Source: Psammoneis japonica (lineage: Eukaryota). Taken from it: a stretch of DNA of 64,000 nt. The notes under the pieces are model-generated. The model made no database searches. It had not been told where the DNA came from and worked only from the letters and a program-made list of their open reading frames with translations. Positions 4,430-64,000 of the stretch are shown in pieces. A program made the translations under genes and the position numbers. The stretch is taken from assembly GCA_008632985.1 (NCBI GenBank), contig QPGO01000150.1:1-64000 (forward strand). Direction: 5' to 3'. Within the stretch, counting starts at the first letter, position 1; each line of letters opens with the position of its first letter.

Positions 4430-4739
4430 TGCTTGCCGCTGTTGTGATGGGGACTCGAATACAGCTATAGAAGTGGTTGGACAAAAATGCTTTTGCAGAA
4501 ACAGATCACTTGTTCAACAAAAATACACCATCGTCATAAAAGAGGGGAGCGGGGAGGGCTGAAGATGTATCACTTCCTAGCGGGAAAGTTCATTCTTTGT
4601 CAACTATGTCTTCGGACAAAGAGCCTGACGAAACGCTGAGAAACGCAGAACCGAGTCCCACAGTTGCCAACGAGCAGGGGAAAAAGAGAAAACAAAAACG
4701 CTGTGTTACATTACATGAAAAAGAGCTAACAGACCATGG

Positions 4740-11944: not shown

Positions 11945-12199
11945 GCCTTACACCATACAACAATAATCTGGAACATTCAGCAGCAAATGTTGCAGATTTC
12001 GTGCCGGCAACGTTGTTGTCAGTGTTCCGAATTTTCTCCTGCCAGCACAACGAAGAACTCTCATTTTCAGACAGTTAGAGAGGCGATCACACGTACCAGG
12101 TGCTACCGGTAGCTGTTAACATATCTAAAAACTTCGGCATGAATTCCAGCCCCACCCAGTGCCTCTTTCTCGCACCAAACCTCCATCAACACTGTTGAC

Positions 12200-38428: not shown

Positions 38429-38699
38429 AATATTTGAATTTTGTCTCATTCCAACCGTCGGAACCAGCGCAGGCGATTGCTCGCCATGTGTATCTACACT
38501 TTGGTAATTCGTGTGTATCTACGGGCCGTTATAACATTTATGTAAATTTAACGTAAATGACCAAATGACACCCCAACGGAAACATTCAAAAATTGGATTC
38601 AACAAAACCAGACATGAGGGTTAGTACAATCGTCGGCTTTTTTTCGGCACAAAGTCAACAAAACGCCATCTCGTCGTACCTCAATCGATCGTGCAGAAC

Positions 38700-41600
38700 A
38701 GCGACATTGGATCTTATCATGTGACGTTCCACCCCCTCTGCCTTTCCCAGAACATTTGAGGAAGGGTCGTGTGGCGTTGCAGCGGATCCCTCTGGTTGAC
38801 CCACCATTCGCTCAACCCGATCCTGGGGCTCTTCCTTCAGCTGCCTCAGCTGCCGGCGGCTCGGCGGTGCATGAGCCGCCCCTCCCTCCAACAATCTCAC
38901 TCATCGAGCTTTGCTTTTGATCTTCAGCATCACATCACAGATGTCTCAGCATCATCGACATCCTCGGGTGCTGCCTCAGGCGGAAAATGTGCTCATTGCG
39001 AGAGGCACTCTTCGGAGGAGAAGATCCTCTTCTCTTGGGTCTGTGGAACAAAAGACGGGACAATGGAGGATGAGCTCTTCTTTGTGTTGGTCAATCAATG
39101 CCGGCGCTTCCCTGCTGCTCACCTGTTCTGCCATGCATTTCCTCTTGCACTCGTCATTGTCTGGACGACTTGGCTGTTCTCGCAGCTGAGCTGGGGAAAG
39201 TGAGCTGCTCGCCCCCTGTTTTTGAAATTGGTCGAGTCAACCCGCCCCCAATTTTGCCACTCCTTCCACAGCATTGGCAACCTTTGTTTAACAAACTTTT
39301 GCCAAATTTTCCTCAACTTGTTCATGAACGGAAATGAGGCCCATCATTGGCAGCATTGGCGGGACCCACAGCTCTTGTGGGACTCAGTTTTTGGCGGGGA
39401 ACTTTTTTCACACGACTGAGATCAGAGACCCCACATGACTGAGATCAGAGACCCCAGGGTCATCATCTGTTGAATGACAACCTGTCAACAAAGATTCTAT
39501 CACTCACAGGAGAGAAACCATCCCACCCGAGTTGTGTTGCACAGACAAATCCAACTGACAGCCTCGCCGACGCCAAGCCACTGCACGAATCATTGACATG
39601 ATCATTTTAGATCTAACAATGTAGATCTGCTCAGCAGTCGTTCGTGTCAAAAACATGCCATCCAATCAACCATGGGTGTCTCTTGCCACTTCCAAATGAC
39701 AAAGCACCTGTCCATTGTTCTCAGACAAGCATCTGTGCCGCGGCCACAACCACTGCCTCCAAAACCACCATCAGTGGCATCGGCATTGCGACCACCAGCA
39801 TCAAGCATGACACCGCCAATGAGGCCTGCTCAGCCTCCCACACCACCAGCACCAAGCATGTCACCGCCAATGCCACCCAATCGGCCTCCCACACCACCAG
39901 CGCCAAGCATGTCACCGCCAACATGGCCTGCTTGGTCTCACACCACCGGTCCGGCCTCCCACACCACCAGCATTGTCACCAATGCGGCCTGCCAGCGCGT
40001 CTTCCCCTGCCACCAATGCGGCCTGCTTGGCCTGCCACAGCACCATCACCCCTGCTGCTGTCATCCGAATGACCACCATGACACACATCGGGAGGCTGAT
40101 CACGGGACGGCTGTCGGTTGCAAGGCTGTCGCCACCAACACCATCAGTGCCGCCACCATCACTGCCATCGGACGATGTTCCACCATGGGACACAAAAGGA
40201 AGGCCACCACCACAGCCACATCCACACCCACTGCTGTCGGGGTGGCTGTTGGTTGCAATTCCTCCACCACAGCCACATCCGTGCTCACTGCTGTCATCCG
40301 AATGTCCACCACGACATCCATCATGGGAGGGCCAATCACGGGACGGCTGTCGGTTGCAAGGCTGTTGCCGCCAACACTGGTGCCACCACCATCACTGCTG
40401 TCAGACAATGTTCCACCATGGGGTGCAAAAGGAGGGCCACCACCAAGGCCACGTCCACGCTCACCACCCCTGACACCGCCACAGCCTGGACTGCCACCAG
40501 TGAATGTGCTGCCACCACCAATGCCAGCAAGACCAGAACCACTGTGACAACGAGCGAACCCTGCATGGCCGCGATGACCTCCATGTGGTGCACCACGTCT
40601 GCTGCTGCGGCGGGGTTGGTTAAATCCACTGCAGTGATTGCATGTGATGAAAAAGAATCCTGTCCTTCATCTCCAAGAACAAAAAGAGTGACAGCAATGA
40701 TGGGGTGAGATTGTTCAGTGACAAAAAAGGGCGTGTTGTGCTGGGCATGTCATCATGGTCTGATTCGGTGCATGCCTTGCATTCGACAAAGAGCATTGTG
40801 AGAAGAAGAGCATGCACCCAAAAAAGGCATTGGATTGGTTGCACCGGTGTGTGTTGGGATGCAGACAAAAAACAACATGCGCGTCATTCTGGCATTGGGC
40901 AGAAGGTTCTGGGTGTGGTGTTGCACATGTCGCAAGAGGGAAAATGTCATTCAGGTGTTGCAGGGAATGAAAGGGTGATGGATTTGATCTTGTGTCGTGG
41001 TTTGTGTGGTCGTGGATTCATGTGGTGCAGATTTGCAGTCATGAAAGACATTTTTATCATGTCATTGTCAACGTGTGTTGGTTCTTGTGAGGGGCAGTTA
41101 ACAGGATTGAGTGAGTCCCGCAGGAACGAATTGGGCAGAAAAATTGATCAGAAATCCCACGTGAAAAGGACGCAGAACAATGCATGGGGTGTCCACTTGA
41201 GGAGATCATGTGAAAAACATTTGGCAACTTTAACATGTGCAAAAAAAACAGAAAGAACAATGTCCGGAATGAAAAAAATTATGATGAATGAGTGTCTGCA
41301 CCGGTCATGGGGAGCAAAGATGACCTTGCATGCAAAAGTTCAAATGGATGAAGCTTTTTTGTCCAATCTGTGTAACTGCACAATGCGCAGATGCACAGAG
41401 CTGATGGCAATTTTGACAAATTCAGCCGATTCCTGATGCACCGGCAGAGCCATGCAGGCACATGCCAGTGTTTTGGGAACCGGCCGTCACGTTCCCGGAG
41501 TGAGCGACACACATGACATGACGCTGGAGGGTCATTTCTGGCTCGTAGAAATCTGCATGTTGTCTGGCATTGAAATTCAAAAAGTGCTCTCGACCCAACG

Positions 41601-44526
41601 GTGGTTCCTGCACATGCTGGCTGTGACAATGTTGTGCAGGTCAACAGCACATGACGTTGCAGAGTTCAATTGTGTTTGACTTGCACAAACTGACACTGAA
41701 TGGCAAAATGTGTGCATTGAATGAACAAACACACAAACGGAACTGCCCAACTAAAACAAACACACATCTGTGTGCACTGATGACATGGATGTAATGAAGC
41801 AAACCCATGAAACGACACCACCATCATTGGAGGCCGTCACCATCGACAATGGCATCTTCCAGCGGTCCTGCAACAAGAACACACCACCAGGATCACTCAA
41901 TGGAGAGCCACATCAATGCACTCCATTGATCTCTGTTGCATCAGTCCTCCAACTGACAGGTTCCTGTGGAAACCGGTCAGTCACGTGGACGCGTCCTCAC
42001 CTTTGGGTGCACCTTGGCCTTTGCCTCGGCGCACCCTCAGGTTCAGCTGCTCCGGCCTCCGTGGAATTTGCATGGGAGAACCGGTGCTCAGTCTGTCGGC
42101 TTCGTGACCGGTTCCGATGACCTCAGCTGATGCTTTGGTCATTCCCGCGCAAATTCCGCATCGGCCGGCCAGTGACTGAATGGTTTCCATGCAGAGCTGT
42201 TGCAATGGGCTTCGCTGAAAGACAGACCCAGTTTCACCTTGGTCTCTCTCTCACAACTTTGTCATCACTCAAGGGTGGTTGGTTGCTGCTTTGCATGATT
42301 TTTCCTGAATTTCACCGTGCTTCACCGTGGTGAAAACAACAAGCCACAAGTCTGTGACGGAGGTGGTCCATCTCCCAACTCTCATTTATTTTGTGTTTGT
42401 CATGTGTCAAAGATTGCATGCACATGAAAAGTTGGCAGACGGCAAACTGCATTTTTGAGAAATGTCAATGATTGTCATCATCATCGTGCTTCGATCGCGG
42501 TGTTGATGGCTCTCGTTTTTGTGCGTGATCAGGTGTGACCATGAATGATTCTTGCATTCAAAAATGAACACTGCAAAAAACCTCATTCAAATGCAACGGC
42601 AATTTTGGGACAAACGCGGGGATGACCCCCCTTGAGGATGGATCTGCGTGCTGCGGTCTGTTTTTTGGGAGCTCACAATTTTTGTAAAAATGACCCGGAG
42701 ATGCACCGCAGCAAATGCACGCGCGTCAGCAAAAAAAATTTCAGTGATGGGTCAAACTTTGTCCGTTCGCCAGACACCCTAGAATGCTTGAACGACAGGT
42801 GTGACCATGTGCGACTTTGACCTCAACAACTGCAGACATCATGTCCACAGCCAGTCAAATGCCACTCATCGGCATTTCCCGGAAAGTTGCCACTTGTCTC
42901 CCATGAGAAGCCCGATTTGAGCAAAAATTGGCGGTTTTTCCAACCTGACAACAGGGCACAGGTCGATGAGTGGCATTTGAAGCGCCAAATGTGCAGCTCT
43001 CACAGCCATCTGACAGCCCCTGTGTGAGGGTTTGACGAGCACACAAGTGTTCGGGGGTGTTCCGAGGCAGGTCAAAATGACATGGTGAAGTGCAGGAAAT
43101 GTGAGCCATTTTAAATTAGACCACAGCACGCAGATCCATCCTCAAGTCTTTGTCTCGTTAGACCTTCCACTGATTGACTGAACGTGAGAAAAGAGAGCTG
43201 CGAGCAAGAGCAGCACTTGGGTGATTGACCACCAGAAACAAGTGCAGCAACGCAAACGACACAAACAGAATTTGGCAAGCCGAGTGCATCATTTGGAATC
43301 AAAGGCATGGTCCTTGGAGAGGACTGTTTCACAATTGCACTCCACATTGCATGATGAGTGACTTGTTGACTCTTTACCACAGCGACACGCGCGCGTTTTT
43401 TTTTTCGTGCTGCGCAACGCAGAGCACCAACAAAAAAGACAACCAACATGGCACGTCGCCGTTCCGAGTCATTGCAACAGACAGCACCCCCATGCCATGC
43501 GGGGTGATCGTTGACACGGTAAAGTGCATTGTCATGGCTTGGTTTGGTTTGTTGTTGCGTTGGCGTTGTTTTTTCACGTCTTCACTTGCCGGCTGTCGTA
43601 TCGGCATTTCTTGCATTGTGTCATGCGCGACCGACCGAAACCAACAGAATCGGTGTTGTCGTTTCATCGTCTGCAGGACGGAATCTGGTGGAATGTCAAA
43701 CAAACAGGTGAGCACACATCACAGCACCATTGTTCTGTAGTGTCAGATTGTCCTTTTTAGCATTTCACATTCCCTCAGCTAACCCTTGCTTTTTGTGCCA
43801 CTGTTTCTTGCTTTTCACAAAGACAACAGAAAGGCACGTCGACGTTCGGAGTCATTACAATCAACTGCACCCCGACACCATGCTGGGTGATTGTCAACAT
43901 GGCAAGGTGTGTTGTGACAGCTTGGATTGGGTTGTTGTTGTGTTTTTGATGCGTTTTCAATTCGTGGTTTCTCACCGGCTCTTATCGGCATTTCTTGCAT
44001 CGCGACAGGTGTGACCGACCGAGGCTGACAGAATCGGCATTGTTGTTTTCGGCATCCTGCTGACAAAATCTGGTGGAATGTCAACAAATGGGCAAGCCTG
44101 CAACACAACACTGTTGTTCTGTTGATTGTGAAACCCAACAAGGAAACACTGGCTTGTTGCAGTTGAGGATTCGAAAGCAATCCGTCGCCCAGAGTGCCCC
44201 ATCTTTGACTTTGGAGACTCGAGTCCTGGAGCCAGCTTGAAAGAAGAAAGCTCGTACATGACTGTGAAATGACAACTCCATGTAGCTAAAAATTAAAGAC
44301 CTGTCACTGTGTGCCATTTGTTGTTGTTGACAAACATGCATCAGTGCGCAGTGCCGAGAAACAAAGAACATGCTTTAGCGCGTGATGCCGAGGTGTGACA
44401 TGAAATGCATTGAGCAATGAACAACAACGGAAGAGACGACAACATAAACTCACTTTAAAAAAAAGCAAACAAAAGCTTGCCTGCATCCATCGCTTTTGCC
44501 CCCCCCATCCACATTTCAAATCCAAC
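38700..44526. repeat. TpA-depleted degenerate repeat region, including a Pro/Gly-rich low-complexity tract (39700-40550) and ~380-bp degenerate tandem units (43450-44120)
   Basis: TA scarcity and TG/CA excess; repeated segments at 40098/40335 and 43450/43833; 20-bp tandem GACTGAGATCAGAGACCCCA at 39414 and 39437. Confidence 0.6.
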
Positions 44527-44728
44527 TGTGATTTGATTGCAGCTGTTCTGCTGTTGTGACAATCAAAGGGCTAAGAAAATTGTGTGTTAAAATAGAATGT
44601 GAACTTTTAAAGTGCGTGGTTGGTCTCTTGTCGGAAGCAAGTGCGTCAGCAAAGAATCTGGCTCTTGAATCAAGTTCAAGGACTAGGACAGTTTGCCTGT
44701 CTGTCCGTTTGACCCTAGATTCATCACA
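44527..44728 (-). repeat. Copia 3' LTR
   Basis: Differs from 50341-50542 at 7 nt in 5 dinucleotide sites; abuts the PPT. Confidence 0.95.
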
Positions 44729-47700
44729 CTCCCTCTCAAGAGCCAATGCAGCGTTGTTTCCTCACCAACCAAGCATGAACTTTCGATGCCGAACGAGCAA
44801 CTCTAGTGACAAAGGCTTGGTCAAGCAATCTGCAGGCTGAGCCTCGGTGTCAATTTTCACTGTCTCAATCTGTCCGCTCTGGACATGTGACCGGAAGTGG
44901 TGCAACTTGACATTGAGATGCTTTGTGCGAGGTCGGTGCTTGTGGACTCGCGCCATCTCTAGCGCACCGCTGTTGTCCTCGAACACTCTGCAATGGATCT
45001 TGGGTTCCGCTCGATCGATCGGAAAACCCTCTGCTTTCAATTCTTTCAGCATCTCCATCAAAGGGATCGCCTCTCGCAGGCACAGCTCAGTCCCGTGTGT
45101 TCGCTCTCAGTTGAAGAGAGACATGTTTCTCCCTGTAATTGGGATTTCCACGTGACCGGACATCCACCGTACATGATGACATGTCCATGTCTGGACCTTG
45201 CAGTGTCTGGATTCGAAGTGTCACTCTTGTCGAAGTTCCCCGCAAAATCCGCATCCACATAAACCTCGAGTTCCTTGGACTTGGTTGGCCGCATGACAAT
45301 TCCTTTGTCCCTCGTTCCCATGAGATGCCTGCCAACCACCTGATTGCCTCACCGTGCTCGACTTTTGGAGCTGCTGTGAACCTCGCGCACTGGTGAATTG
45401 TGCACGAACAGTCGCTTTGGGTGCCACGCTCCAAGCAATTCAATTTTCCAATCATGCTCCGGTGGTCGAAGCTGTTGTCAAAGTCTTCTGAGTCTTGGTG
45501 TCGACCCAAAATCACGGATGATGCAGCTGGAGTGTCTTTCGTCTTGGTGTTCTTCTGGAAGTTCAGTTGCTCCAGAATTTGATCGACAAGGTGAGGTTGC
45601 GTCAGATGCATCGTCCCGTCCGCTTTCCTGTCGACATTCACCCCAAGAAAATCTTGAATGTCGCCTTCCTCCATTGTGTTTAGGTCTGCGCTTCGCACAT
45701 CTTTCACGACTTGATCAAGCTCCTTTTTGTCTGGACCAGCAAGCAAAGAATCATCCGTGTGGAGGACGTGTGTGCACTTTCCTCGGAAGAAGACGCACTC
45801 ATCATATTTCGACTGCTTGAAGCCAAGCTTGTTGACAAGTTTGTCCACGAGACAGTCGTTCCACACTCGGCCAGCTTGTTTCTGACCGTGTGCATTTCGA
45901 TGGAGTTCGAGTGCACAGTCCTCCGAGTTGCCATCTTCTACCTTGAATCCCTTGGGAATTTTCATGTGGATCTCTCGCTCGACTGGGGCCTGCGGAAACG
46001 CCAGCACGCAATCGAGTTGCTTGGTGTGCCAATTGTTCATGGCTGAGAGAATTGGCAGCATTCGGATCGAGCTCCACGAGGCTGCAGGTGCGCATGTCCT
46101 GTCCGGATCGTAGTGAATTGACTTTTTCATCCTTGACCCGTCGATGTTGAGCCTCACCTTGTACTTTTTGACTTTTCTCGTCTTGATGTCGCGTTTCCGC
46201 TTCATTTGCCACACTGCAGGCAATGCTGTGGCATCCTTGGGGATCTCGGAAATGTGTCTCACCGAGAAGTTTCGGCCCCCGATCTGATCTTGGAATTCTT
46301 TTTCCATCGCCTTGACGAACTCCTTCGCATCTTTTTCCTTCATCGCTTCGTGGTGGTGCATGGCATCTGGGTCCGCCGTCGACTTGCAGGCATGCAAGGG
46401 ATCTTCTTCGGACAACTCTTGTTGAGGACAGAGAGATTCGAATCCGAAGATCTCTCCCTCCATCTCTCCAATGCATTCTTCAGCTCTCGCTGGCGACTCG
46501 GCGGCACATCTTGGGTTCGGTCCACTGACACGTCCCGATCTGGTCGTCACCAGAGGTGCGTCGCGTTGCGCTGCGTCTTGTTGTTGTGCTGGAGCTTCCA
46601 CGTTAGTAGCGCGCTGTGGGTCTGCCTCCTGAGCACTGGTTGGGAGGTTGCCATCCTCCCTCTGAGTTGGCGATTGTTCTCGCCTTGTGTTCCATTCAAG
46701 CTCGACCCATCAGGCTCTTGGTCTGTTGGTCGGCTGTCGTCGGCACTCAACCACATGGGTTGTTCCCCAGAGGATTTTCGTTTTCTCCTCTTCTTGTGGC
46801 TCTTCTTGTTCGTGAGCCTCACGCTGTTTTCGCGTTTTCTGTTGTTGGGGGTCTCGGATGCTCCGTCAGCCAGGCCATCGGCTGGTGGATCTTCAAAGCC
46901 TGCTTTGGCCTTCCATCCGATCTTCCAGCGCTCTTGTTGCGCCATGTGAAAACTCGGGTCGAATCTTACATGGAATTGTGGGCTCACTCGTCCTGTTTCG
47001 ATGTCGAGGACAAGCGCCACGTTTCGGCAGTGCACTGGCGATTGGCCAAGGTAAATTCCCACGTTGGACCTTTGCTTCCACTTGTTGAAAATGTTTCCCG
47101 TCTGAAGTGCTTCTTCTAGCACTGCCACAGGACACCCAAAAGGGTGACAGTGTTTTGAGTTTACATCCACTGCGGATGAAGTGAACAGCTGGCATGCACT
47201 TCGGCTCGCTGGATCTTTCAGCAGCGGCGTCTGTTCAGCGCTTGATTTGCCATTCGCAATGCGCACGGCCAGAGGTGAGGCGAGATGGCTTGTGGCCACC
47301 TCTTGTTCGCGTGAATCAACTGCGTTCTCGCCAGGTCTTGCAGATCTCGTATTTTCTTCTCTGCAATTCCATTTTGATGATGCGCATTCACTCCGGCAAA
47401 GGCAAGTCCCTGCCTTTGTTCTCGAACTGCGTTCACCCATGCCTTCGCCTTGAAAATGCCGTTGTCAGCATGACAGTGTCGGATTTTGATTCCACTTTCT
47501 TCTGCACGCTGCTCAAATGCTCTCTTCCCTCTCAACGTCTCTTCAGCAGAGCTCGTTTGCTGGAGGCACACGCATCCGTAGCCTGTGGCTTGGTCAACGT
47601 GCACAGTCGCACAATTGCAGCGGTTTTTGGCAAGTGTCCCCGTGTTCTGTGCTGCTGGTCCAGGTGTGCTCGAGACCAGCATGTCGACTGACACGACTTG

Positions 47701-50340
47701 TCCCGGTCTCGTAGGTGCAATTTTGTCCCACTCTTTTCGGTCCTTGGTCTCCATGGGCGCTTTGTTTGCTTCCCACAAAGGCATGCCGAGCAGACTGGGA
47801 CTGGGCACTTGGCCAGCGTGGGATCGATGAGCCTCATTTTCGCCATCTGTTGCAGGCGCTTGAATGATGTGTGACTGAATTTGTGATGCAGCTTCAGCAG
47901 TTTGGTGGTTTTTGTTTCTTCACCTCCATCTTGTCTGTCTTCCTTGTCTGGAACAACTGCCGCCGGACTGTCTTCATCCTTCTCCCCTTGCAGATCAAAT
48001 TCGGTCTGCCGTGGGGCGGCCCAGTCGATGGGTTGGGCCGCGGTGTCCAATGAGTGTAGACCTGCTTTTTGAAGGTGGGATTCTGAGAGCGTTTCGTCGT
48101 CAGCCTCGTCATCGCTAACAAGGTGAGCTTCAGAATCGTGTGCGATCATAGGATCGTCCTCGTCGTTCGCTGAAATTTTTGCCTCTTGACAGAAAGCATC
48201 ATATTTGGAGCAGCCGGGAGCCAGGGCGAACGTGGCGACGTTTGATTTCGTTTTGTCGATCGGTGTGGTTAGCTTGTGCGAATGTTGGCTCCAATGCAAA
48301 ACCGTTGCGCAATGGTTGGTGGTCTCCCCTGTCCCGCCAACGCGTCTTTTTGAGATTGCGCCCAGTGTTGTGGACTGAGCAGTCGCGCATCCTCGTCCGT
48401 GGGCACGTAGAACGAGTTGGGGATGCAAAACTTGTGTCGTTTTCCAGTGTCGTCTAACCAGCTCCATACGATTGTGCCAATCATAACTCCTTTCGTTCGT
48501 GTTCCTCCGAAACCCTTGATGTGGCGATTCGATTGTCGCAGTGGGCCTTCGAAATCTTCGATGAACGAAGAAATGCATCCGGAACAGCGATTGTCAACGC
48601 CGACCGGGCCTCCATCAGTGTCGAAAACGACGTTGTTCGTGCGTGCTGGGCAGGTCTGAGCTTTGAATGCCAAAGCCGTGCATGCGGTCCATGCATTGCG
48701 AATGCCTCGTGCCAAGTTCCATCGAGTGCACTTGCGGCGTCGACACTTCACGATTGCTCCCTCTAGGGAGCGAATCCGTGCTCGCATGGCTTGTGCCTCT
48801 TTCCCGTTCGGGCTGCTCTCCCCCGTCCACACAGGATTAACGAGTTTTCGGCGCTGTCGGGATCGATCTCGGCGTTCATGACGACTCTTGTTCCTAGATT
48901 TTTGTCGGTTCATCGGATTGGGCCGGATTGGTGAAAGGCAGGCTAGAATGTGCAGCAATGGCGACCAGATCGTCTTGTGGGACTCATGGGCTGCTCCCGT
49001 CAATCGCCTCCTCCATGTGGGTGACGTTGATGGTCATTCCGCATCCGAAGATGAATCGTCTCCGCCGTTCTTGATCGCTTCCATAGCTTGTGAAATGCGG
49101 ACGGCATTCTTCGTCGCACCGCGCTGCTCGTTGTCTTCTTCATCCCTCTTGGGAATGAATCCGAGTCCTTTGCAATCCTTGGGATGGTGAATTCGCCACT
49201 TTCCACCACATTTTCCTCCAGTGATCTTGTCACACCAATGGCACGGCTTGCCTTTCCACACGACGGGGATCTTTTCTTTACCCTTCGCCGGTGGTTTGGT
49301 GGGACCCTTCTCCCTGCGATGCCTTTTCGAGGGCTCGCGTCGTTTCTTCTTGTGAGCCTTTTTCTTTTTCTCAAGGCTCGCAATCTTGGCTGACAGAGCA
49401 ATGATCTGCTCCTCTTGAGGATCGGGAGCATTCCATTCTCCACTTTAATTCATCATCTTGAAGCGCTCGTTTGCCACATTCATGATGTCTTCAGGAGTCA
49501 TGTCTTGTCCCTCATCACACTGCTCCTTCTTCCTGCCAATGCAGTCAACGAACTTCTTGTCCGATGCGTTGGCACATCCCTTGAAGAGGTTTGCCAACAA
49601 GTCTTCTGCAGTCTCCCCTCGCGCGGCAAGCGCCTTCGTCATCATGAGCACACACTGATTGAATTTTGTGATGTCCGAGTTGATCGTATGAACACACTTG
49701 TCCAGTGATGACAACTTGGATCTGATGCTGGACGTTTTCGCATTCGAATCGAGATGGCTCTCGCGAATGATGACCTTGAGGAGCAGACACGCAGATGGAC
49801 GTTTCTGTTGGATGGGATCTCCTTCCCTTGGCTGGAGCATGCACTCCTTCTTGTGCATCAAGATCTTGTTCAGTGCCTGGGTGTCAAGACTCGCCATCAG
49901 ACACGAATGGAACACATGATTGTCCTGTGTCGCACGTCCTTCTTCGAAGAGGTGAGCTCTCTCGTGTTGCTCAATTTGTTCCACAGTGAGCTGTCCGCAG
50001 TTGTCCACCAGACAAACACGATCACTGTCTTGCTCTTCGGGGTTCAAGTCGACCAGCAGAATGGACAATTCACACTCGTCGTTGTTCCATCCGCAATCGC
50101 CCGCACGTTTGTCAATTGCCTCCAGAAACGAGAACAAACTATCTGGCGTGCAGTCGAACAACTCTTCACTGAGTTTGTACGTCGCTCTTTCGTAGAGCTT
50201 CCTTCCAGATGTTCTCCGACAGTCGATTGCGCCGGTCATGGCGCCCGCTGGCGTGAATGCAAATGGGACATCCTCTCCAGCAGCTGATGCGCTGCTGTCA
50301 GAATCCGCCATGGTGCAATCAGCTCAGCGCAGAGGAAGCG

Positions 50341-50542
50341 TGTGATTTGATTGTAGCCATTCTGCTGTTGTGACAATCAAAGGGCTAAGAAAATTGTGTG
50401 TTAAAATAGAATGTGAACTTTTAAAGTGCGCAGTTGGTCTCTTGTCGGAAGCAAGTGCGTCAGCAAAGAATCTGGCTCTTGAATCAAGTTCAAGGACTGG
50501 GACAGTTCGCCTGTCTGTCCGTTTGACCCTAGATTCATCACA
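50341..50542 (-). repeat. Copia 5' LTR
   Basis: Direct repeat of 44527-44728; abuts the PBS and gag ATG (50311). Confidence 0.95.
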
Positions 50543-51149
50543 TCCAACAGCATCAACACGACAACCGTTTCCAAAAATGTTCTTTCCAAAGGAAGAGCGA
50601 CTTCTTAAAAAGTGCCAGGTGTCCTTGCCATTCCTGCAGCATCTGCACTGACACCTGCATCCAAGCGACAGGCATTGCTGTGACAGTCTGCTGCCACGCC
50701 ATCAACAGCACTGCACTCTCTATTTTAATTCTGATGCAACAAATGAGCGCAGCCAGAAACACGCGTTGGTGTGTGATGCCAAGACATTGCATGAAATGTG
50801 TCGAGTGACAAATGACAACAACGCAAGAGACAGCAATGTAACTTGCTTTGGTGTTGAAACAAAAGATTGCCTGCATCTCTTTCGCCCCCCTTCTATGATT
50901 CAAAGCACAATTCACAGTTGTGATGTCTCAAACAGCGGAACAACAGTGACGCTTTGAATGCAGTCAAATTGCTGCAGCAGAAGAAGCGGCAACAACAGGA
51001 AGCATGTCATCAAACATCAAAAATGCAATTGGACGATAGAAGACATCACCCACTGTGGTGATTCTGTCACAACGGCGAAGACAATCACATCATGAAGGCT
51101 GTTTGCGTCGATGTGGTGTGAAAAAAATGTGCGTCCGCACGACCGCGCA

Positions 51150-54100: not shown

Positions 54101-56350
54101 GGAGTTCGACCATGGAAGAAGAAGGTTGATGCAGCACTGCGAATGCAGCCTTCTCAGAACATGATGCAACTACGATCGTTCATCAGCGCAGCAACCTGCC
54201 ATCAAAACATGTGGCCCCGTTGCTCTCATGCACTTGCTCCACCAACCAAGTTGATTGGCAGAAGCAAATTGGGTTGGACCCCAGAGTGTCAGAAAGCATT
54301 TCAAGATGTGAAGACTTTGATGATGGATGGCACCCTTTGGGTCTGCCTGAATCACAACAAACCCTTCCACATCTGCGCTGATTCCTCCGACCATCAAATG
54401 GGCGCAGTGATCATGCAAGATGGAAAGCCGGCAGCGCATTGGTTGTGGAAGCTCAGCACCGTGCAGCAAAATTGTTCAACCATCAAGAAGGAACTTCTCG
54501 TGGTGGCAATGTGTTTCAAAGAATTTTGTTCCATGTTGCTTGGAGATGATTGCACTGTTTTTGCTGATCATAAAAATCTCACCTTTTGCACACTCAATTC
54601 TCAACGAGTGCTCAGGTGGAGACTCTTTTTGGAGGACTTTGCCCCAACTTTTGAGCATGTTGATGGCAAGGACAACCTGTTGGCAGACTGTTTTTTGCAA
54701 TTGCCACATGTGGATCCACCGTCGGAAGGAAAGTGTGCTCCAAATGAAGGCAAGCTGATGGATTTCAAGGTGATCGACACTGCCATGCTGCCTCATGGAG
54801 AGGAGTGAGACAACACGGATCGTGTGTTTGTTTCACTTGCTGCCGGGAAGAGCCATCTCAGTTCTGTTCCTCCTTTGTTGATGATCCTGAGCCATGTGAA
54901 TCATTCTTGAACTGTCCCTCACTTGATGAAATGCAAAACCCAACAACTGTGCAATGGATTCAGGAGCACCAATTTGTTGATGTGGAGCTGAATGACACGC
55001 AACAACAATGCCCAATGACCCATTGTTGAACATGTGAACCAGTGTCCTGTGATTTGTTGTCATGCTCATCCCAATGCTCCTCCAACAGAGTGGAAAATTT
55101 GCATCCCTGCTGCTTTGTTGCATGATGTGATTCAATGGCATCACAGGACATTGGGGCATGCTGGAATGCGCCGCATGCACGCAACCATTGGAGTGCATTT
55201 TTGTCATCCTGTCCTTCATCAGACTTGTGAAGAATTTTGTTGTGCTGATTGTCAACGCGCTTGAAAACTTTGGGTCCTGGATGTGGGGAACTGCCTGAAT
55301 GCAAAGCATCTTTGCTGCCATGGAATGAAGTTGCAGTCAACCTCATTGGTCCCTGGAGGATTGACACTCAGGGCCAGGAAATTGCACTCAATGCTTTGAC
55401 TTGTGTCGGTGCTGTTTTGAATGTCACTGAACTCATTCGCATTGACAACAAAACCTCTGAGCATGTTTCCCAGCAATTTGAAAATTGTTGGTTATCTTGT
55501 TGTCCTTGTTCTGACTGTTGTGTGTTCATGACAATGGCGGAGAGTTCATTGGAGAAGACTTTCAGCTGTTGTTGCAACAGGCAGGAGTGGAGGATGCACC
55601 CACTGTGTCCAAGAATCCACAAGCCAATGCGGCATGTGAACACATGCATCAAACTGTTGGTGACATCTTGTGCACTTTGCTTCACCTTTGCTCTCTGCAG
55701 AACATCAGGCAAGCTGACCAACCAGTGGGTGACACTTTGGTGACGGCGATGCACGCAATGTGGTGCACCATGTCCCGAGCTCTCAAAGTTTCATTTGGTG
55801 CTGTGGCACTTCATCGTGACATGACATCAGACCTGCCAGTGCCAGCGGATCTTGCCACTGTTCAAGAACACCAACAAGGAATTGTCAGTGCAAATCTCCG
55901 CAGAGCAAATGCCAAATGATGATCCTGCAATTTTCAAGTTGGCAGTGCTTGTCAAGACCATTGATCCCACCAAGCTTGCACCTTGAGCACATGGTCCTCA
56001 CCCCATTGTTCAAGTGCATGCCGGTGGTGCCATTGTGGTTCAACAAGCACCTCACGTGGTGGAACGACTTAATGTTTGGCATGTTGCACCATGTCGAGTT
56101 GAGGTCAAGGGTTTTTTCCCCAACTCTTGGGTTTCCCTTGTTTCCTCTCATGGAATTTGAGTTGAAATTTTAAAATTTGGGAGTCCCGGAAGATTCATGG
56201 AAGGGAAGAGTGCAGTGTCAAGCACCCCATTTTTCTGACACATGGTGTCAATGATCCCATTGGACACAAGAGGAGCCATTGCAATGGGCTTTGCTGAAAG
56301 CAACCTTGTCACCTTGGTCTCTCTCTCACAACTTTGTTGTCACTCAAGTC
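51150..56350 (+). mobile_element. Degenerate Ty3/Gypsy LTR retrotransposon (gag-PR-RT-RH-IN, PPT, probable 3' LTR start)
   Basis: gag with RGG/Gly-rich tract (51940-52280); PR end CDMTLGQDFL; RT GRVRWVSDFRELSK, FTKLDL, LKVNPLKCEW; RH ADSSDHQMGAV, DHKNL, RWRLFLEDF; IN HRTLGHAG..CADCQ, PWNEVAVNLIGPW, HDNGGEF, NPQANAACE; PPT GGAAGGGAAGAG 56199-56210 followed by TG. Confidence 0.9.
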
Positions 56351-58626
56351 TTTGTCTTGCTGGACCTTGCATTTGTGATGCAAAATGTCCTGCCATGGCC
56401 AATGACCTGCCACACGTGTGCAAACATTTCGAGTGTGCTGCAGAACCCCCGGCGCACTGTCCCTGTGGTGTCTCATGGCATCATCCAAGATTTGGTTGTC
56501 TTGAGGCTCAGCTTTGATGCTTGCACTGCCCAGCATCCGTGTGTGGTGGCAGCAGCTCTCACCCTCTTCCTTTTGCAGCCTTTTGTCAGTGGCCAGTTGC
56601 TTGGGGGCACTGTTGTTTGCAGCCACATTCTTTCCTTTGACTGGCTTTGTGGTCTGCTGCTCAAAAGTGCTTTAAGAGCCAGCAAATTGTGCCAAATTCT
56701 GGCACTCTTGTTTGCACAAACCAGCTTGTCAATTTTTTTTTAAGTCAGCCATCTGATGTCCTCTGGTCTGTGCTCCCCTCTCAAATGCCGGGGCACAACA
56801 GCCACTCAAGCATTGCTGCTCTTGCCCAGTTTGTCCTTTGGGTTTGCTGTGCTCTGGCATTTTGACGCTCATCTTTTGCACAAAAAAACCTCAATCTGCA
56901 AAAAAAAAAGGACAGCAGCAACAACACCCTGAGTTGAAAAGCTCATCACACATGTGCGCTGAAAGTCAAGCACAACTGATGCTCACCACAACCTCAACCA
57001 AGGCAACAACTGCCCCACACACACCCACACATGCACGCACATCTGCAGAAACAAAATGATGCCCAAAACAGCACGCAACAAGCAGCCAAGATGATGCAGA
57101 CCCCAGCTGTGCTGCAATCTGACAAACCCAGATTTTCAAGAAATCTCTGCAGCTGTGAGTGCCAAAAAGCTCTTCTTGCGGTGGGCCAAGAAGCTCGTGT
57201 GAAAAGGTTGTTTTCAACAAAAAATTAAATTTTGCAGAGACTCAAGAACACATCACACAGCTTCTCTTTCCATGTGAGGATGTGAGTGTGCCTGACCAAG
57301 ACAGATGGCACATCATGAGATGCGGGAAATTTTTTAAAACAGTGGCTGAGGGTGCATCTTAAGAGAATTTCCAGCTGAGCATCAGCCAATGAACAGCCAA
57401 CTCAGCTTGTTCAGCCACTCACCTCTGGAGCTTTTAAGGCTGATGGAGCTGGGACAAACAATGCACAGTGGCTCCCCATCTCTCAACTTTGCTGAGCAGC
57501 CAATGCACATGGTTGCCTGTGCCACACTCATCATCAAAAATCAACCGCTGTTGTTTTCCAACAAATTGCATGGGGGGGGGGGGCAAGCAGTCCAAAAAAT
57601 GCAGCAGTGTGTCCAGCGGCTTCTTTGTTGCAGTGCCAACCAAGTTAAAATTAACCCCGCCTGTTGGCAAGTTGATGCTTTGGAGTCTGAGAAATGCTTG
57701 TCATTTGAATGGCTCAAGAAGACAGCAGGGCTGTGTTGGCTGCACACCAGCTTTTTTGGCAAAATGTCACACGCTCTGACATTGCACGATCCAGTGCTCC
57801 TCGAGCTGAAGGTGCAGCAGCAAAATGGCAAAGCAATTGCACAAGGTGATTGCTCCCCTTCTTGTCTGTCGGGAACACAGAAAGGCTCAAGTCAATGGTG
57901 ACATCCAGCACATCAGAGTGCACAATGTCGCAATGTCTGCACACATGACAAAAATGTGTTGCCACATCATAAAATCCACTTGTCTGCACATGACGGTTTT
58001 TGTCATTTGGTCAATTGTTGATCTCCTGCTGTTCTTCATGTTTGAACACAGATGTTTTTTAATTTTTGTGCTCTGCCTTTTTCACAACAACTGACGATCT
58101 TCAATGACAAGCCAAACACTGCAATTGCATGCAATGAAATTTTCATCATGCAAAGTGTGCACTGATCATTTAATCAACAACTGTGCTCCAATTTGCCTGG
58201 TCGTCCCATCGTCCTCTTCATTCCACATGTCTTGTCCGCTCTCTTGCAAGAATTTCAAATGTGCCGCTGCCGCGTTGGATGTTTCCTCGTCGCCGTTCCA
58301 AAAAAGCCACACTGCATTTCTTGCATTTGGGCGAACATCATCAAGAGGAAGAGGTCCCTCGAAACGCTGAATCGCATCGCTGCTCCCCTCTTGACGTCGT
58401 GTCGTCGGCTTCTTTTTCTCTTTCTTCATTTTGCCCGTCCTGTTTTTCTCTTCCTTCCTCATCTTGGTGCCGCCTGTTTTCACCGTCTCCGGCATCTTTC
58501 CATCCGAATCCTTCTTTTTCATTGACCCCGTTGCTGTCGCCTTCATCTCTTGTTGTTGTTGTTTTTTTTCTGTTGTGTGTCACTTTGTTTTGGATCCATG
58601 TTTCTGACTTCTCTCTGTGCTGTCTC

Positions 58627-59016
58627 GACGCGTTCCAGGTCTAGGTGGGACCTCGCACTGCTGAACTGTGACATCGATAGTTTTTTGAGTCTCGTCGTAT
58701 GTCGCGCACGTAGATTTCTACGTGATTTTTTCGATATTTTGTGTCATTTTACGGTACACTTATTGAGCGATCCGTCCAACAACTTTTGACATTTTTTGTT
58801 ACAGCGCGATTCTACAATGTCTTAAGAATCGCGTAGGGCAGGCGAAGTTGCAAAAACGTCGAGTGGTAAGAGGCATAATTGTACCACAAACTTGGCCGTT
58901 TATTTGATGTTGAAGATAAATATATCCATTAATTAAATTCTCGTACTACGGAGCTCGCACGTAGAATTCTACGGGCCCAATGTCACAAGGAGTCCCACCT
59001 AGGGCTGGAACGCGTC
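58627..59016. mobile_element. 390-bp inverted-repeat-bounded element (MITE-like or protected regulatory island) with normal TA content
   Basis: 25-bp IRs GACGCGTTCCAGGTCTAGGTGGGAC / GTCCCACCTAGGGCTGGAACGCGTC (23/25 match); TCTC on both flanks; internal repeat CGCACGTAGA(T/A)TTCTACG twice. Confidence 0.6.
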
Positions 59017-59738
59017 TCTCCATTTCCGAATGTTTCTTTATGATTTGCGTCACTTGAAGGCACCCACGTGTTTTTCACGCACCTTAAAGCGCACGCAGAA
59101 ATCCATGTTGTTTTCCTGTGCATGCACCCTTTCTCCTGATGCTGTTCTGCACAACATTTTCTTCCATCAACTCTGCACTCCGCACTGCCCTTTCCCGGCA
59201 TGATCTCATGCAGGATTTCCCTGGGAGAAGTTGCACACGCGTCTGGCAGGTTTTTGTGTTTAAAACTCCAAATCGTGCCAGGCGCGTGTGTGACTTCTCC
59301 CACACACCACTCTGGCACATTTCTGCAGAAACCAGATTTTTTGGTGTTGGAACAGCAACCATGGCGCCACGTGACCTGTCAGCTGCCTCTCTGTCACAAG
59401 ACAACAATGATTCCTGCCTCGAGGAGGCCGCATTTGAATCTCTCTTTGCCAACGATTTTGGAGTGATCGATGGCAACGAGCGGAGCCACGTCAAAGTGAC
59501 AATCGAGACGGTGAAATCCAAGGTTCAGTTTCACCATGATTCCACTTGTGATCCCTCTCCGAATTGGATCGCGCTTGCCTGTGTGTGGCAAAAGTCAAAG
59601 GGCAGACCTCATTTTTTTGCAGAGCCAATGGCTGTGAATCGCACTGTTGCAAAGGAACTTGGGCACAAGAGCTTGCTGCACTTTCTTTCCGCAAAAGGAT
59701 GGAGTTGTTCCAGTTGAGGTGCCAAACATCCTCATGCG

Positions 59739-62700
59739 TTGGAGCATTGTCGTGCTCCCAAAGCAGAGGACATGAAAGTCATCGGCAACAAGGCAAAATC
59801 AACAGACATTGCAACCAACATGATGGCAAAGATTTCCATGTTGTGCAAGCTTCTCCATGATCCCAGATTGTGTGACCCAAAGGGAGAGCCACTTGTCAAG
59901 CACATCAAGCTGAGAAGTTTTGAAGGGAAGGTTTTGCGTTGCGCGCAATGCCTTCACATTGGTTTTTTGATTCTTTGTGACAAGATTCTGCCATGCACAC
60001 CTGAAAGGAATGGTGATTGCAGTTGTTGGCTGCACTCCCTGTTCGGCGAATGTGACAAGACATCGACTTGCATCAACTTTTTGGAGAATTTCCTGGCTCT
60101 TGGTCACTGTGAGACGACCAAAGACGAGTGCCCCATGTCCTTCCCTGAATTCGTAAAGTCGTTGTTCCGCCAACACAAAAATTCTTGGGAAAAGCCCGCG
60201 CGACCAGCGATGCTCGATGTCGAGCGAGAACAAATGCGCGCAACACATGTCAATGAGACTCTTTTAAGATGTGTGAAAATTGATCGTGCAGTTTCTGCCG
60301 CTGACGATTCCAGCAAAAGCAAGGCTGCAAGGGATCGTTTGGAGGCCATGTGGAAAGCCAGGCTTTGTGACTTTGCCACTCAGCACAAGAAGAAAGAAAT
60401 CGGCAATGCAATTCCATCTGTTACGAAAAATGCTCGGAAACGAAAAAATCCAAATGGTGTGAATCCACCACATTGTTTGATTGATTGTTTGTGCTCCTCT
60501 TCTTGTCTCCAATTCTTCCACTCTTCTTGCCAACTCTTTAGCTGCCTCCCTTTGCTCCTCAAGCCCCAGTCTCAAAAACCCCAAAGATGGTGAACCTTCT
60601 GATGTTTCTCAGAACGAATCGCTGATTCTCCAAGATGTGCCGACTCTCAAGGAACAATTTGAATGTTCCCGAACAAAGTGGCCAACCCTCGGTGCGACTC
60701 ATCAGTCACCTCCTCCTCTGCCAGACAATTTCACAAAAGAAGAGCTTGTGAAAGTGTTTCCTGAACCATCTCCGTTTGCGATTCCGGGTGAGGTGAAGTC
60801 ACAACATTCTCGCCTTGTCGTCTTTGAGGAAACCCCCATTTCCGGTTCCTTCAAGGGGAGCTGTGTCAAGCACCAGTTGTTCCACAGCATCTCCGATTTC
60901 CACTTGGTGAATCACCTCCACAAGTTTGTGCATGGATTTGAAAACAGCACAGCTCCCAATGATCCGACGCAAGAATCAATGGTTGCGATTGCTTGCCTGA
61001 CCCAGTCAACCTCTCATTTTTCGACGTGGTCACTCATTTGTGACACACGGACAAGATGTGTCAGAAACACTTTTTTGGATTGCGATTCAGAGTGTCGTCG
61101 ATGCTCCGTGCAGTGTTGGAACATGGCGAGCCAAACGAAAAAAGGGATGGACCAGAATGCAAGTTGCGCTGTCGGATCTGTTTTGGTTGTTGTGGCCAGA
61201 ATTGCGAAGTCGTGGATGGCGAGTTAGCTGAAGTGGGACCTGCTCACAAGCCTGGTGCTGTCTTTGGCAGGGACAAGTGGGAGAAGCTTCCAAAGGATGT
61301 GCAGGTGATGATGGCCTCAATCTTGGACGCCACGCAACTCTGCAAGGATGAAATTAATCTTGTTGCTTTGAAAGAAATGCGCTCCTTCCATGACCCGCAC
61401 CGTGACAGTCTTTTCGCGGCTGAGCTCCGCAAGATGGTTGGAGCCAAGCATGTTAGAAGGACAGGCGTGGAAATTCAAGTGAAGTGCATCTCATCATCCG
61501 GCAAAAAATCCGTCAATTCGAAAACCGAGCTGCACATTGACAAAGAGGATTGTGACATGGATGGGTGCACCAAGACTGGTGCTCTTTGCTTGTCACCATG
61601 AGACGCTGTTGGTTGCTCTTGGTCGTTGAAGGTCATCACTGCATCCAAAGGCAATGCTGGAAACTGTGTCAGTTTGGCACATGGGTGTGCCGAGTTCCGA
61701 TCGCGTGTGCATGGTCATTTCACAAAACTTGATCTGTCACATGCTGCAGAAATGATGAAACACCGTGGCCCTTGTCGTCCTCCGTCGGGCAAGCCAACCC
61801 ACAGAAACATCAAAGATTTTTTCCTTGACCCTCACTCTGTGTGGGTGGAAGAGGAAATTGGCAAGCCAAATCTTCCGTCCGACACAGTTGAGTGTCCCGT
61901 CATTGTCATGCTGAGGAAACGTCTTCCGTTTGCCATCGTGGAGGACTTTAATTTTTTGTGCAGTTGTTCGGCAATCATCGACAACCTCGATGAGGTTGGT
62001 GCATGTGATTGCTTTCGTTGCGCCGTTGTGGCTGGGTGTCAAACCGGATTCTCCCGTTTTCACTGCTTGTTGTGCAACACAGATGCTGTGAAGCGTCCTT
62101 TCGTGGCTGGCGATCATGTCCTTCATTGCTTCAGAGAAGCTGCATGGCCATTCAGCAGCATTGCGGGGGATCGCAACAACCGACGCATGCAGAGCCCGGG
62201 ACTCGATTTCGAGGAGGTTCATGTGGCAGAGTGCGGGACGAAACTCAATGGTTTGATGGACTTGCTTGTTGGCGGACTGGTTGTTGTCATTGACTGGATC
62301 AATGACAATGTTGGCAAGCCAACATTTAACCACAAGGCGATCGAGGACATGTTTGAAACCATGGTCCAAACATGGGATCATGCAGGTGCTGATCATGGAG
62401 AGCTCAGATGCATGAACTCCACACAGATGTTGATGCTGTGTGGCACAGGGATCCATCCTCACCCTGACCTTCGTAATCTTGTCTGTCCGGCTGCCAAGTT
62501 GGGAGCGGCGAAGCAAATGGAGGAAATGAAGGTCCCCGATTTACTCTTGGAACGGATGGAGGGTGATTTTGATTTGGAAGACCATGGAAAGAATGGCCCA
62601 GAGTCTTTGCCATGTGACCTGAGTGCAGCTCGTGAAAAGATGGGAATCTGCGATGTCTTTTGTCATGGACAGCATCTGTTGCTCTTGTTCTCTGATGGGC

Positions 62701-62771
62701 AGTCAATGATCAAGCGGTTTGGAAGGTGTGAATGGGAGCCAGTCCCATTCGTGTCAATTGATGAAGTTTGA
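59739..62771 (+). pseudogene. Decayed long coding region of unknown family inside the TA-depleted block
   Basis: Consecutive + strand ORFs 59739..60593, 60481..61227, 61056..61601 and 61626..62771; protein-like composition but no Tyr and excess Cys/His. Confidence 0.5.
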
Positions 62772-62835
62772 GTCAAACTGGAACGGCAAAGAGAGGTCAC
62801 TTTTTCATGGCAATCACATTTGTTTTTTGTCTGAT

Positions 62836-64000
62836 CATGCCAACATTGTCACATTGAATTCTCGTTCTAACAGGAAGAAGGCCGCCGGTGATTTGTTGTC
62901 ATTCGCAATGAACAAAAGTGACGATTGCAAGGAGGAGTCAATTGACGAGAAAACAAGCGAACTTCCAACCACTTGCATGGGTGAAGAGGACAAAAGCAAA
63001 GAGCCCATTGACGATGAGCACAACCAAGTTGCACATTGCTCCGAGGGTGAAGAGGACCACAGCGACTTGGGAGATTGTTTCGCAGGTGACGAAACCAGCG
63101 GGGAAACACACAATGTGCTGTGGTTGGGGATGACCCATCCGCTCAATGCAAGGCATCTATCTTCTCAAGAATTGTGCTCTGAGAGGGGTGGCCTCAGTGT
63201 CGTCCGACCAACACAGGCGAGATGAGGCCCGCGCAATGGCATTTGAGGAAACTGACAAAACAACCACAAACGTCGTTCCAACAGTTTCTCTCCAAGATGG
63301 CCATCCTGATCTGCGTTTAAATTGCAGTGTGAGAGCAAGAGATTTTGTCAAGAGAGTCAAGCAGCAGTTTGAGAAACTTGTTGATTTCGACAATCATGGG
63401 TTCGACCAAATCATGTTGGACCACTGCTGGATGCCAGATGGAGAGTGGCGTGACAGTCGTTTTGGGACGACTCAATTTTTCCAGAGTCCAATTGATCTTT
63501 GGGCCTTGCTCTCCAAAAACGAAGAAGGGGGGGACATGGTGATTCCCTTTGCTCTTGCAACCTTCTTCCAGGTTGTCAAACACATGCCAACATTGTCACA
63601 TTGAATTCTCGTTCTAACAGGAAGAAGGCCGCCGGTGATTTGTTGTCATTCGCAATGAACAAAAGTGACGATTGCAAGGAGGAGTCAATTGACGAGAAAA
63701 CAAGCGAACTTCCAACCACTTGCATGGGTGAAGAGGACAAAAGCGAAGAGCCCATTGACGATGAGCACAACCAAGTTGCACATTGCTCTGAGGGTGAAGA
63801 GGACCACAGCGACTTGGGAGATTGTTTCGCAAGTGACGAAACCAACGGGGAAACACACAATGTGCTGTGGTTGGGGATGACCCGTCCGCTCAATGCAAGG
63901 CATCTATCTTCTCAAGAATTGTGCTCTGAGAAGGGGGTGGCCTCAGTGTCGTCCGACCAACACAGGCGAGACGAGGCCCGCGCAATGGCATTTGAGGAAA
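62836..64000 (+). repeat. Recent direct duplication, period 747 bp (62836-63253 matches 63583-64000; runs off the window)
   Basis: Near-identical copies; 4 of about 7 differences are CG vs TG/CA. Confidence 0.9.

Follow-up and report, generated by a model that had tools for sequence, protein, structure and literature searches.

Repeat-directed hypermutation as a genome defence is, to our knowledge, established only in fungi, where it takes the form of C-to-T change. Repeat-induced point mutation (RIP) converts CpA to TpA through C:G to T:A transitions and has a length threshold. RIP of Neurospora and other fungi (PMC2621366, PMC12543289) is functionally the closest system to the one considered in this study, a probable hypermutation that has stripped the dinucleotide TpA from Ty1/copia and gypsy retroelements and other repeat DNA in 64,000 nucleotides of the diatom Psammoneis japonica (GenBank assembly GCA_008632985.1, contig QPGO01000150.1, positions 1 to 64,000; this whole stretch is called the window). 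As in RIP, the change is confined to repeat or transposon DNA, consists of transitions only and follows a dinucleotide context; both strands are affected, copies are mutated independently and nearly to saturation, elements are permanently inactivated and, in a possible parallel to the length threshold, a short element of 390 bases escapes. Unlike RIP, which makes TpA from CpA, the process here destroys TpA and makes CpA and TpG, acts on the A:T rather than the C:G pair, and is found in a diatom and not a fungus. With A:T as the mutated pair, neither a cytosine deaminase nor a route of the methyltransferase type can account for the change.

On the 5' side of the edited base ADAR tolerates A besides U, and on the 3' side it prefers G. 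ADAR hyper-editing and the A-to-I mRNA editing of the fungal sexual stage are similar to the present case in changing A to G with U/T preferred 5' of the A; however, they act on RNA and on one strand, whereas here genomic DNA is changed on both strands, AA is left alone and the 3' neighbour is preferably a pyrimidine. TadA/ADAT enzymes are tRNA adenosine deaminases; in the anticodon loop, TadA naturally acts on the A within U-A-C-G, and evolved TadA, as in laboratory adenine base editors, deaminates DNA adenine. The natural TadA context matches the 5'-T-A-Y-3' preference described below (Y, pyrimidine; R, purine). We know of no natural DNA adenine deaminase directed at repeats. APOBEC3 edits retroviruses and long terminal repeat (LTR) retrotransposons (PMC4866542). 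It resembles the process here as an enzymatic hypermutation that kills retroelements and leaves a context-specific genomic footprint, but it changes C to U on minus-strand cDNA and so gives one-stranded G to A, in contrast to the A:T to G:C change of this locus, which is symmetric between strands and arose independently in the two LTRs. No description of TA>TG/CA repeat hypermutation was found in the full-text literature searched, mostly without subscription journals, nor in PMC4504042, PMC2806351, PMC9998398, PMC12344493 or the preprint 10.1101/2025.10.24.684338, so an earlier description is possible; a preliminary description of the window, made from its letters alone, had likewise pointed to no formal one in diatoms.

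TpA depletion across the window

All window counts come from this one 64-kb stretch, in which 29.3 kb of pooled depleted repeat DNA was compared with 32 kb of genic DNA, and dinucleotide frequencies are given as observed/expected ratios (O/E). TpA O/E is 0.09 in the repeat blocks (170 TA) vs 0.56 in genic DNA (1201 TA); the genic O/E would predict 1059 TA for the repeat blocks (Poisson z = -27). Profiles at 2 kb and 500 bases track the blocks, with values per 500 bases of 0.4-0.8 in genic DNA and 0.00-0.25 in depleted blocks. Measured against genic O/E, the depleted DNA has lost 889 TA and 703 CG and gained 781 TG and 641 CA, while the remaining 12 dinucleotides shift by at most 265 each; CpA/TpG O/E in repeats reaches 1.61. 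The preliminary description had reported repeats nearly devoid of TpA and enriched in TG and CA beside normal genes, and had proposed a sliding-window check; within the window, both the contrast and its alignment with the blocks hold. It had placed the depletion at 38700-64000, and this range is indeed depleted (38716-64000, minus 58627-59016), but it is not the only one, as blocks at about 4606-7139, 8024-8339 and about 12127-14286 are depleted too. Its assignment of the depleted DNA to transposable elements or repeats stands for copia and gypsy, which Pfam recognises, and for 42.2-44.1 kb, where contig depth indicates high copy number; in the remaining blocks no protein could be recognised.

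Block borders are sharp, at less than 100 bases. At the left border of the main block, for example, the final normal TA is at 38715 and the next ones are at 39289 and 39498. An apparent TA gradient at 12205-12657 is made up of seven TA, all in YTAR, the context that is spared. Repeats and genes are close in A+T content (51.0% vs 51.8%), and no change is seen in AA, AT or TT (AA/TT O/E 1.24 in repeats vs 1.16 in genes), so that GC-biased gene conversion, or a general AT>GC bias, was rejected.

The loss is also visible at the level of open reading frames (ORFs). Five genic ORFs contain 2.0-4.8% Tyr, and two ORFs that had been singled out as Tyr-free, 53915-54808 and 61626-62771, both have none. 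TA-free DNA has no TAA or TAG stops and so fills with long spurious ORFs; across 39000-64000, TAA and TAG are almost absent from all frames. The depleted blocks hold 114 stop-to-stop ORFs of at least 90 amino acids, in many frames and on both strands; most are without a homologue, and the sole Pfam match among the 114 is the gypsy RNase H.

Mutation of once-intact retroelements

The element at 44527-50542 is a bona fide Ty1/copia insertion, with an RVT_2 match, an LTR pair and, in the LTR alignment, identical 5-6 bases bordering it on both sides; Pfam matches to gag_pre-integrs and SH3_retrovirus fall below curated cut-offs. Its pol ORF (45087-46601, minus strand) has 472 homologues, one of them from Fragilaria crotonensis. 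Among columns at least 70% conserved in homologues, the 16 Tyr columns read Tyr at 2, His at 6, Cys at 6, Phe at 1 and Ile at 1, whereas 202 of 255 conserved non-Tyr columns are kept (Fisher p = 8e-8). The gypsy remnant gives the same picture. Its RNase H ORF (53894-54805; RT_RNaseH_2, E = 4e-19) has 286 homologues among longer proteins with a full gypsy pol, Nitzschia inconspicua and Pseudictyota dubia among them; all 8 conserved Tyr columns are lost (4 His, 4 Cys), compared with 114 of 165 conserved non-Tyr columns kept (Fisher p = 1.3e-4). No gypsy reverse transcriptase or integrase was found in the window by Pfam, and no LTR pair.

These columns bear out the replacement of conserved Tyr by His or Cys that had been read from the letters (12 of 16 columns in copia, 8 of 8 in gypsy), and the altered motifs named at the time are in place: HTDD for YxDD (45750-45761), HGQKQAG (45870-45890) and HHHEAM (46341-46358) in copia, and FLGHW (54074-54088), ICADSSDHQ (54371-54397) and AAHW (54431-54442) in gypsy. 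At the codon level, copia has 39 mismatches at 219 conserved columns, of which 20 are reverted by a single TG>TA or CA>TA step (10 CA, 9 TG, 1 ambiguous). The others are 3 CpG-type changes, 3 other transitions, 4 transversions and 9 multi-step changes, with only 2 "other GC>AT" transitions among the 39. Changes in TA context, at 20 of 39, outnumber the 3 of CpG type and the 3 other transitions.

Related copia loci on metagenome contigs (n = 77, 371 kb, a set that lies outside the contigs encoding the database proteins P0050 and P0067 discussed below) have TA O/E of 0.34-0.90; none of the 77 is TA-poor, and no 600-base window falls below 0.15. Since 77 of 77 relatives are TA-normal, the TA-free state is not a family trait. 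That active family consensus sequences might be equally TA-poor and Tyr-free had been named as a refuting outcome; the intact relatives compared here have normal TA and Tyr. A search of viral contigs for related loci returned none. Within the high-copy family, at 42393-42584, other copies in the sequencing run X1 have TA at 13 of 13 G>A/C>T sites where the window reads TG or CA, among the matches listed (41 of 944 difference rows, with TA at 31-80% of local depth). The loss of TA is best read, from these comparisons, as mutation of once-normal elements. The converse explanation holds that a low TA content is native to the elements or was selected, for example through UpA avoidance or codon usage, and that they were never mutated. 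TpA is under-represented window-wide, in genic DNA as well (O/E 0.56), as this explanation would have it, but the relatives are normal in TA and Tyr, catalytic motifs are destroyed, and LTR pairs differ at exactly these sites. On the Tyr columns, the 77 loci and the differences within LTR and repeat pairs, we consider native or selected TA-poverty refuted.

Strand symmetry and independence of copies

Mutation affected both strands and unrelated elements, copia and gypsy alike, as had been proposed. Steps from TA to CA and from TA to TG number 10 and 9-10 in copia, and 29 and 26 among the 136 differences that separate P0050 from the DNA of its intact relative L001 (80% amino-acid identity). Tyr>His vs Tyr>Cys replacements number 6 vs 6 in copia, 4 vs 4 in gypsy and 11 vs 13 in P0050, which keeps 1 of the 26 Tyr codons of L001. 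So even a split of TG and CA products excludes editing of one RNA or cDNA strand, and the one-strand prediction of an ADAR-type process fails.

Copies were in addition mutated independently after their separation. The two copia LTRs differ at 7 positions that amount to 5 events, all of the TA/CG vs TG/CA type (TA vs CA, TA vs TG, CG vs TG, and two sites of TG vs CA), with zero background substitutions besides. A double discordance of TG vs CA implies two independent hits on opposite strands. Such discordances account for 22 of 116 events in five depleted repeat pairs vs 6 of 645 in two genic paralogue pairs (Fisher p = 1e-14, calculated on 22 of 110 with the six events of the 62836 pair excluded), and they fit TA loss, a TG/CA pair being ambiguous by class alone as it may derive from TA or CG.

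Sequence context and relation to CpG decay

The target is 5'-TAY-3' on each strand independently, while TAR is largely spared and TTAA hardly altered, a rule that is new here. In ratio to intact copia DNA, TA is retained at 0.017 in ATAC/GTAT, 0.029 in ATAT and 0.044 in GTAC, at 0.07-0.15 where one side is favourable, at 0.23 in CTAA/TTAG and 0.27 in CTAG, and at 0.67 in TTAA (1.0 vs genic DNA). Grouped by class, RTAY stands at 0.026, one-strand TAY at 0.098 and YTAR at 0.36, and multiplicative per-strand survival fits these ratios, with about 0.16 for TAY and about 0.61 for TAR (0.16 x 0.61 = 0.098). The order of contexts is the same in 6 of 6 blocks, and YTAR makes up 52% of residual TA (89/170) vs 13% in genes (156/1201; p = 9e-29). 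For example, the residual TA of the gypsy block (n = 35) include 23 YTAR and 0 RTAY, those of 4606-7139 are 6 one-strand, 6 YTAR and 0 RTAY, and 5 of the 6 in the copia LTR at 44527-44728 are YTAR.

Among NA dinucleotides TA alone is depleted, with TAY the most sensitive context; as AA, AT and TT are undepleted, a 5' T is required. Pol eta has an A>G bias at WA motifs (W, A or T), and its error hotspot includes TA>TG. Error-prone repair synthesis by a Pol-eta-like polymerase, repeatedly recruited to silenced repeats, has this hotspot in its favour, but the intact AA/TT (O/E given above) does not suit it, and dependence on the 3' base and near-saturation would be unexpected, so that we regard it as highly improbable.

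The A of TAY and the T of RTA opposite it are indistinguishable from sequence, because both depend on the same flanking base. This leaves room for a thymine-based explanation that shares its targeting with the adenine-based one we prefer and differs solely in the mutated base: a TET/JBP-like or other enzyme would modify T in 5'-RTA-3' of repeats, for example to 5-hydroxymethyluracil (5hmU) or 5-formyluracil, which would pair with G and produce T>C. Since TA>CA on one strand is TA>TG on the other, such a process would leave the same products. In dinoflagellates, 5hmU is reported to favour TpA and TpC. However, the literature searched contained no evidence of such a base in diatoms, the sole match being a review of dinoflagellate genomics (PMC11453091), and saturation of about 84% per strand would demand very efficient mispairing. 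We consider thymine chemistry rather unlikely.

CpG behaves differently from TpA. CpG O/E is 0.97 in genes vs 0.92 in the internal region of copia, where TA O/E is 0.13. With TA so reduced, CpG intact and LTRs free of background change, the TA process must be far faster than substitution, and faster than methyl-CpG decay. Strong CpG depletion is present in some blocks (0.37 in the gypsy block, 0.30 at 4.6-7.1 kb, 0.17 at 12.1-14.3 kb), and 5 of 11 conserved Arg of the gypsy ORF have become Gln, Cys or Trp, a CpG type of change. CpG decay is a separate, slower and familiar process, and methylation of transposable elements has been documented in diatoms (PMC9998398). Deamination of 5-methylcytosine at CpG in methylated transposons shares the TG and CA products and is present in the blocks of CG O/E 0.17-0.37, but it cannot remove TA, which was lost in copia where CpG is intact. 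The preliminary description had held that neither RIP nor 5-methylcytosine deamination explains the loss of TA, and the TpA ratios of repeats and genes, together with the copia values, lead to the same view.

Authenticity of the bases

An X1 contig of 372 letters matches 40353-40724 exactly, in bins with 0 and 1 TA per 500 bases, which speaks against a base-calling artefact. In addition, 63% of sampled 31-mers of 36001-46000, a stretch only about 27% genic, are present in X1. Mean contigs of about 214 bases, word depth of 100-450 and 1-base insertions relative to the window lead us to take X1 for short-read data and the window for an assembly of long reads. X1 contigs at full depth carry one extra base each at 45078, 46675, 47232, 47725 and 48341; the window probably has single-base deletion errors at these positions, and part of the frame breaks in copia pol may be assembly errors.

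The same Tyr footprint occurs in JGI/IMG and ENA proteins from contigs of 3-8 kb. Among the JGI/IMG proteins, P0050 has 1 Tyr, 7 His and 11 Cys at 22 conserved Tyr columns, P0067 has 3, 8 and 6 at 20, and P0167 has 3, 4 and 9 at 18; from ENA, P0019 has 14, 4 and 4 at 22 columns and P0185 has 6, 2 and 1 at 12. The signature is not specific to this assembly.

If the bases were not real, a repeat-specific modified base at TpA could have been misread by a long-read base-caller, or polishing could have introduced errors. The apparent 1-base deletions at five copia sites, as in long-read assemblies, would be in keeping with this. Yet an X1 contig reproduces TA-free sequence letter for letter, most 31-mers of the repeat part occur in X1, one family within X1 has both TA copies and TG/CA copies, and the Tyr to His/Cys footprint recurs in proteins from other contigs. 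Moreover, a modified base with altered pairing would be expected to become a permanent mutation once the DNA is next copied. An artefact thus seems very unlikely.

Features of the window

The depleted blocks and the elements within them are listed in Table 1.

Table 1. Positions of TA-depleted blocks and associated elements in the window
Feature	Position	Strand	Detail
Copia LTR, one of pair	44527..44728	-	202 bases, 96.5% identical to 50341-50542
Copia internal region (gag, integrase, reverse transcriptase), probably hypermutated	44729..50340	-	RVT_2 E = 3e-37
Copia LTR, second of pair	50341..50542	-	Pairs with 44527-44728
TA- and CpG-depleted block with gypsy pol remnant	50543..58626	+	RNase H ORF 53894-54805; TA O/E 0.06, CG O/E 0.37
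Unmutated 390-base element with terminal inverted repeats, inside TA-free DNA	58627..59016		TA O/E 0.90 (27 TA), CG O/E 1.52
TA-depleted block, repeat class unassigned	38716..44526		TA O/E 0.10 over 39000-44526
TA-depleted block, long Tyr-free ORFs	59017..64000	+	TA O/E 0.06
TA- and CpG-depleted block	4606..7139		TA O/E 0.07, CG O/E 0.30 (4600-7100)
Short TA-free fragment upstream of ORF 8667-10874	8024..8339		0 TA in 316 bases; CG O/E 0.39, TG 1.65, CA 1.55
TA- and CpG-depleted block	12127..14286		TA O/E 0.06, CG O/E 0.17

The unassigned block before copia has no Pfam match, and its ORF 39597-40544 has zero homologues among 1.84 billion representatives. It includes the high-copy family at about 42.2-44.1 kb, where summed contig depth is 959-9614 vs 235-459 in genic bins. 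Other copies of this family extend beyond 42290 with sequence absent from the window. At this loose end, a version in a second sequencing run, X2, retains CG and TA at sites that read CA/TG in the consensus of X1, which hints that the expressed copy of the family is an unmutated one.

The last block of the window is likewise without a Pfam match, and for its ORF 61602-62768 a search of proteins of 213-681 residues gave no homologue. A duplication at 62836-63251 and 63583-64000 (747-base spacing, 98% identical) shows 4 CpG-type and 2 other differences and zero of TA type, so the duplication postdates the loss of TA; it runs off the end of the window, and a longer tandem array is possible. No Pfam match was found in 4606-7139. 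Direct repeats of 440 bases at 12972-13410 and 13912-14339 are 87% identical and include 5 TG/CA double discordances. In total, Pfam and homologue searches show no retroelement feature in some 15 kb of the TA-free DNA, where such features may have become unrecognisable through mutation.

Several observations concern the genic part of the window. An X2 contig of 1607 letters covers 36509-36813 and 36897-38198 and omits the 83 bases 36814-36896, which start with GTAAGT on the minus strand. The omitted stretch looks like an intron joining the Peptidase_S8 ORFs 34410-36806 and 36842-38038 into one putative gene, which suggests that X2 is RNA, though it is labelled "DNA?". Two PEPCK_ATP paralogues, 16072-17836 and 20203-21967, lie in tandem on the minus strand with about 68% identical DNA. 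Two further long minus-strand ORFs at 580-4429, of 665 and 678 aa, consist of tandem repeats of about 400 bases with units 65-84% identical, and neither has a Pfam family. A gene pair in which a Peptidase_M64-like ORF comes after a PT-repeat protein is present twice, at 8667-11944 and 28526-30611, with one stretch of 145-158 bases matching at 72-74% between the two.

Possible mechanism

We conclude that DNA-level hypermutation probably converted A:T to G:C at TpA in transposon-derived DNA of this genome. Both strands would have been attacked independently, turning TA into TG or CA; the favoured target would be the A of 5'-T-A-Y-3', or equivalently the T of 5'-R-T-A-3' opposite, with TAG hit less and TAA barely. 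The process would be near-saturating and limited to sharply bounded elements, and would have destroyed their coding capacity by turning Tyr into His or Cys, as in YxDD to HTDD. It may be enzyme-driven and aimed at transposon copies as duplex DNA.

On one hand, action after integration, RIP-like or coupled to silencing, is the timing that we favour, with roughly even confidence. On the other hand, retroelement DNA could be edited during or just after reverse transcription, before integration, so that TA-free copies would be dead on arrival. The mutated elements that can be classified are copia and gypsy only, and the element at 58627-59016, whose terminal inverted repeat (TIR) arms of 25 bases at 58627-58651 and 58992-59016 are 92% complementary, sits unmutated inside a depleted block: across its two edges, successive TA lie at 58171 and 58642 on one side and at 59000 and 59039 on the other. 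It also has an internal pair of 19-base inverted repeats, and no second copy was found in the window. The unmutated element shows that the process is not simply regional and continuous; it may have escaped by being very recent or too short, or as a non-retroelement that never met the mutator. Further in keeping with editing before integration, copia looks young, with LTRs free of background substitution though the element is heavily mutated, and some copies of the high-copy family carry TA while others carry TG/CA. However, strand symmetry of about 1:1 in three elements is unexpected for editing of single-stranded minus-strand cDNA, the independent LTR hits with TG vs CA at the same site would need a finished duplex, and the roughly 15 kb of TA-free DNA without a retroelement feature would be hard to place. 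Editing at birth is the main rival to action on integrated copies, though an unlikely one.

With respect to chemistry, the most likely candidate, put forward tentatively, is conversion of adenine to hypoxanthine by a TadA/ADAT-like deaminase acting on DNA; hypoxanthine would pair with C, and A>G would be fixed at replication. More speculatively, some diatoms may direct a natural adenine deaminase acting on DNA, or an A:T>G:C mutator of equivalent effect, to their transposons, where it would rewrite TAY on both strands of the duplex. As part of the same proposal, this mutator would be a genome-defence pathway that evolved independently of fungal RIP and with opposite chemistry. DNMT4, present in many diatoms, is reported to be related to the RIP factor RID and to be of unknown function (PMC9998398); we take it as a lead and not as evidence.

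Several points weigh against a TA-specific, repeat-guided mutator. In P0050, His has replaced Tyr at 3 of the 5 Tyr codons that follow a T in L001, contrary to the simple context rule, the preceding base being read from a relative only 80% identical. The same comparison also holds 23 other A:T>G:C and 7 other G:C>A:T differences, so strict TA specificity may fail in P0050. No library type is recorded for X1, which probably comes from the sample behind the window assembly. Every mutated element that could be classified is an LTR retroelement and the sole TIR element is unmutated, a pattern that also fits a retroelement-specific, pre-integration process. Restriction to repeats is seen in one window of the genome, and the signature occurs in 0 of 77 related metagenome loci and may be rare or limited to some lineages. 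Finally, none of 17 genic ORFs in the window has a deaminase domain, in agreement with the earlier remark that the responsible enzyme is not evident here.

Significance

The context rule, with TAY hit and TTAA spared, is a fingerprint for genome screens and for tests of candidate enzymes. Profile searches fail on mutated elements (by Pfam, only the RNase H in gypsy was recovered), which biases repeat and gene annotation, and gene callers would over-predict in TA-free DNA. A natural A:T>G:C DNA mutator would also be of interest to base-editing work and, if true, would count as the first natural enzyme with the activity built into laboratory adenine base editors. If the proposed process is real, it would be a second, chemically opposite form of repeat-directed hypermutation, in an unrelated and ecologically dominant algal lineage, and a new force acting on the transposon dynamics and base composition of diatoms.

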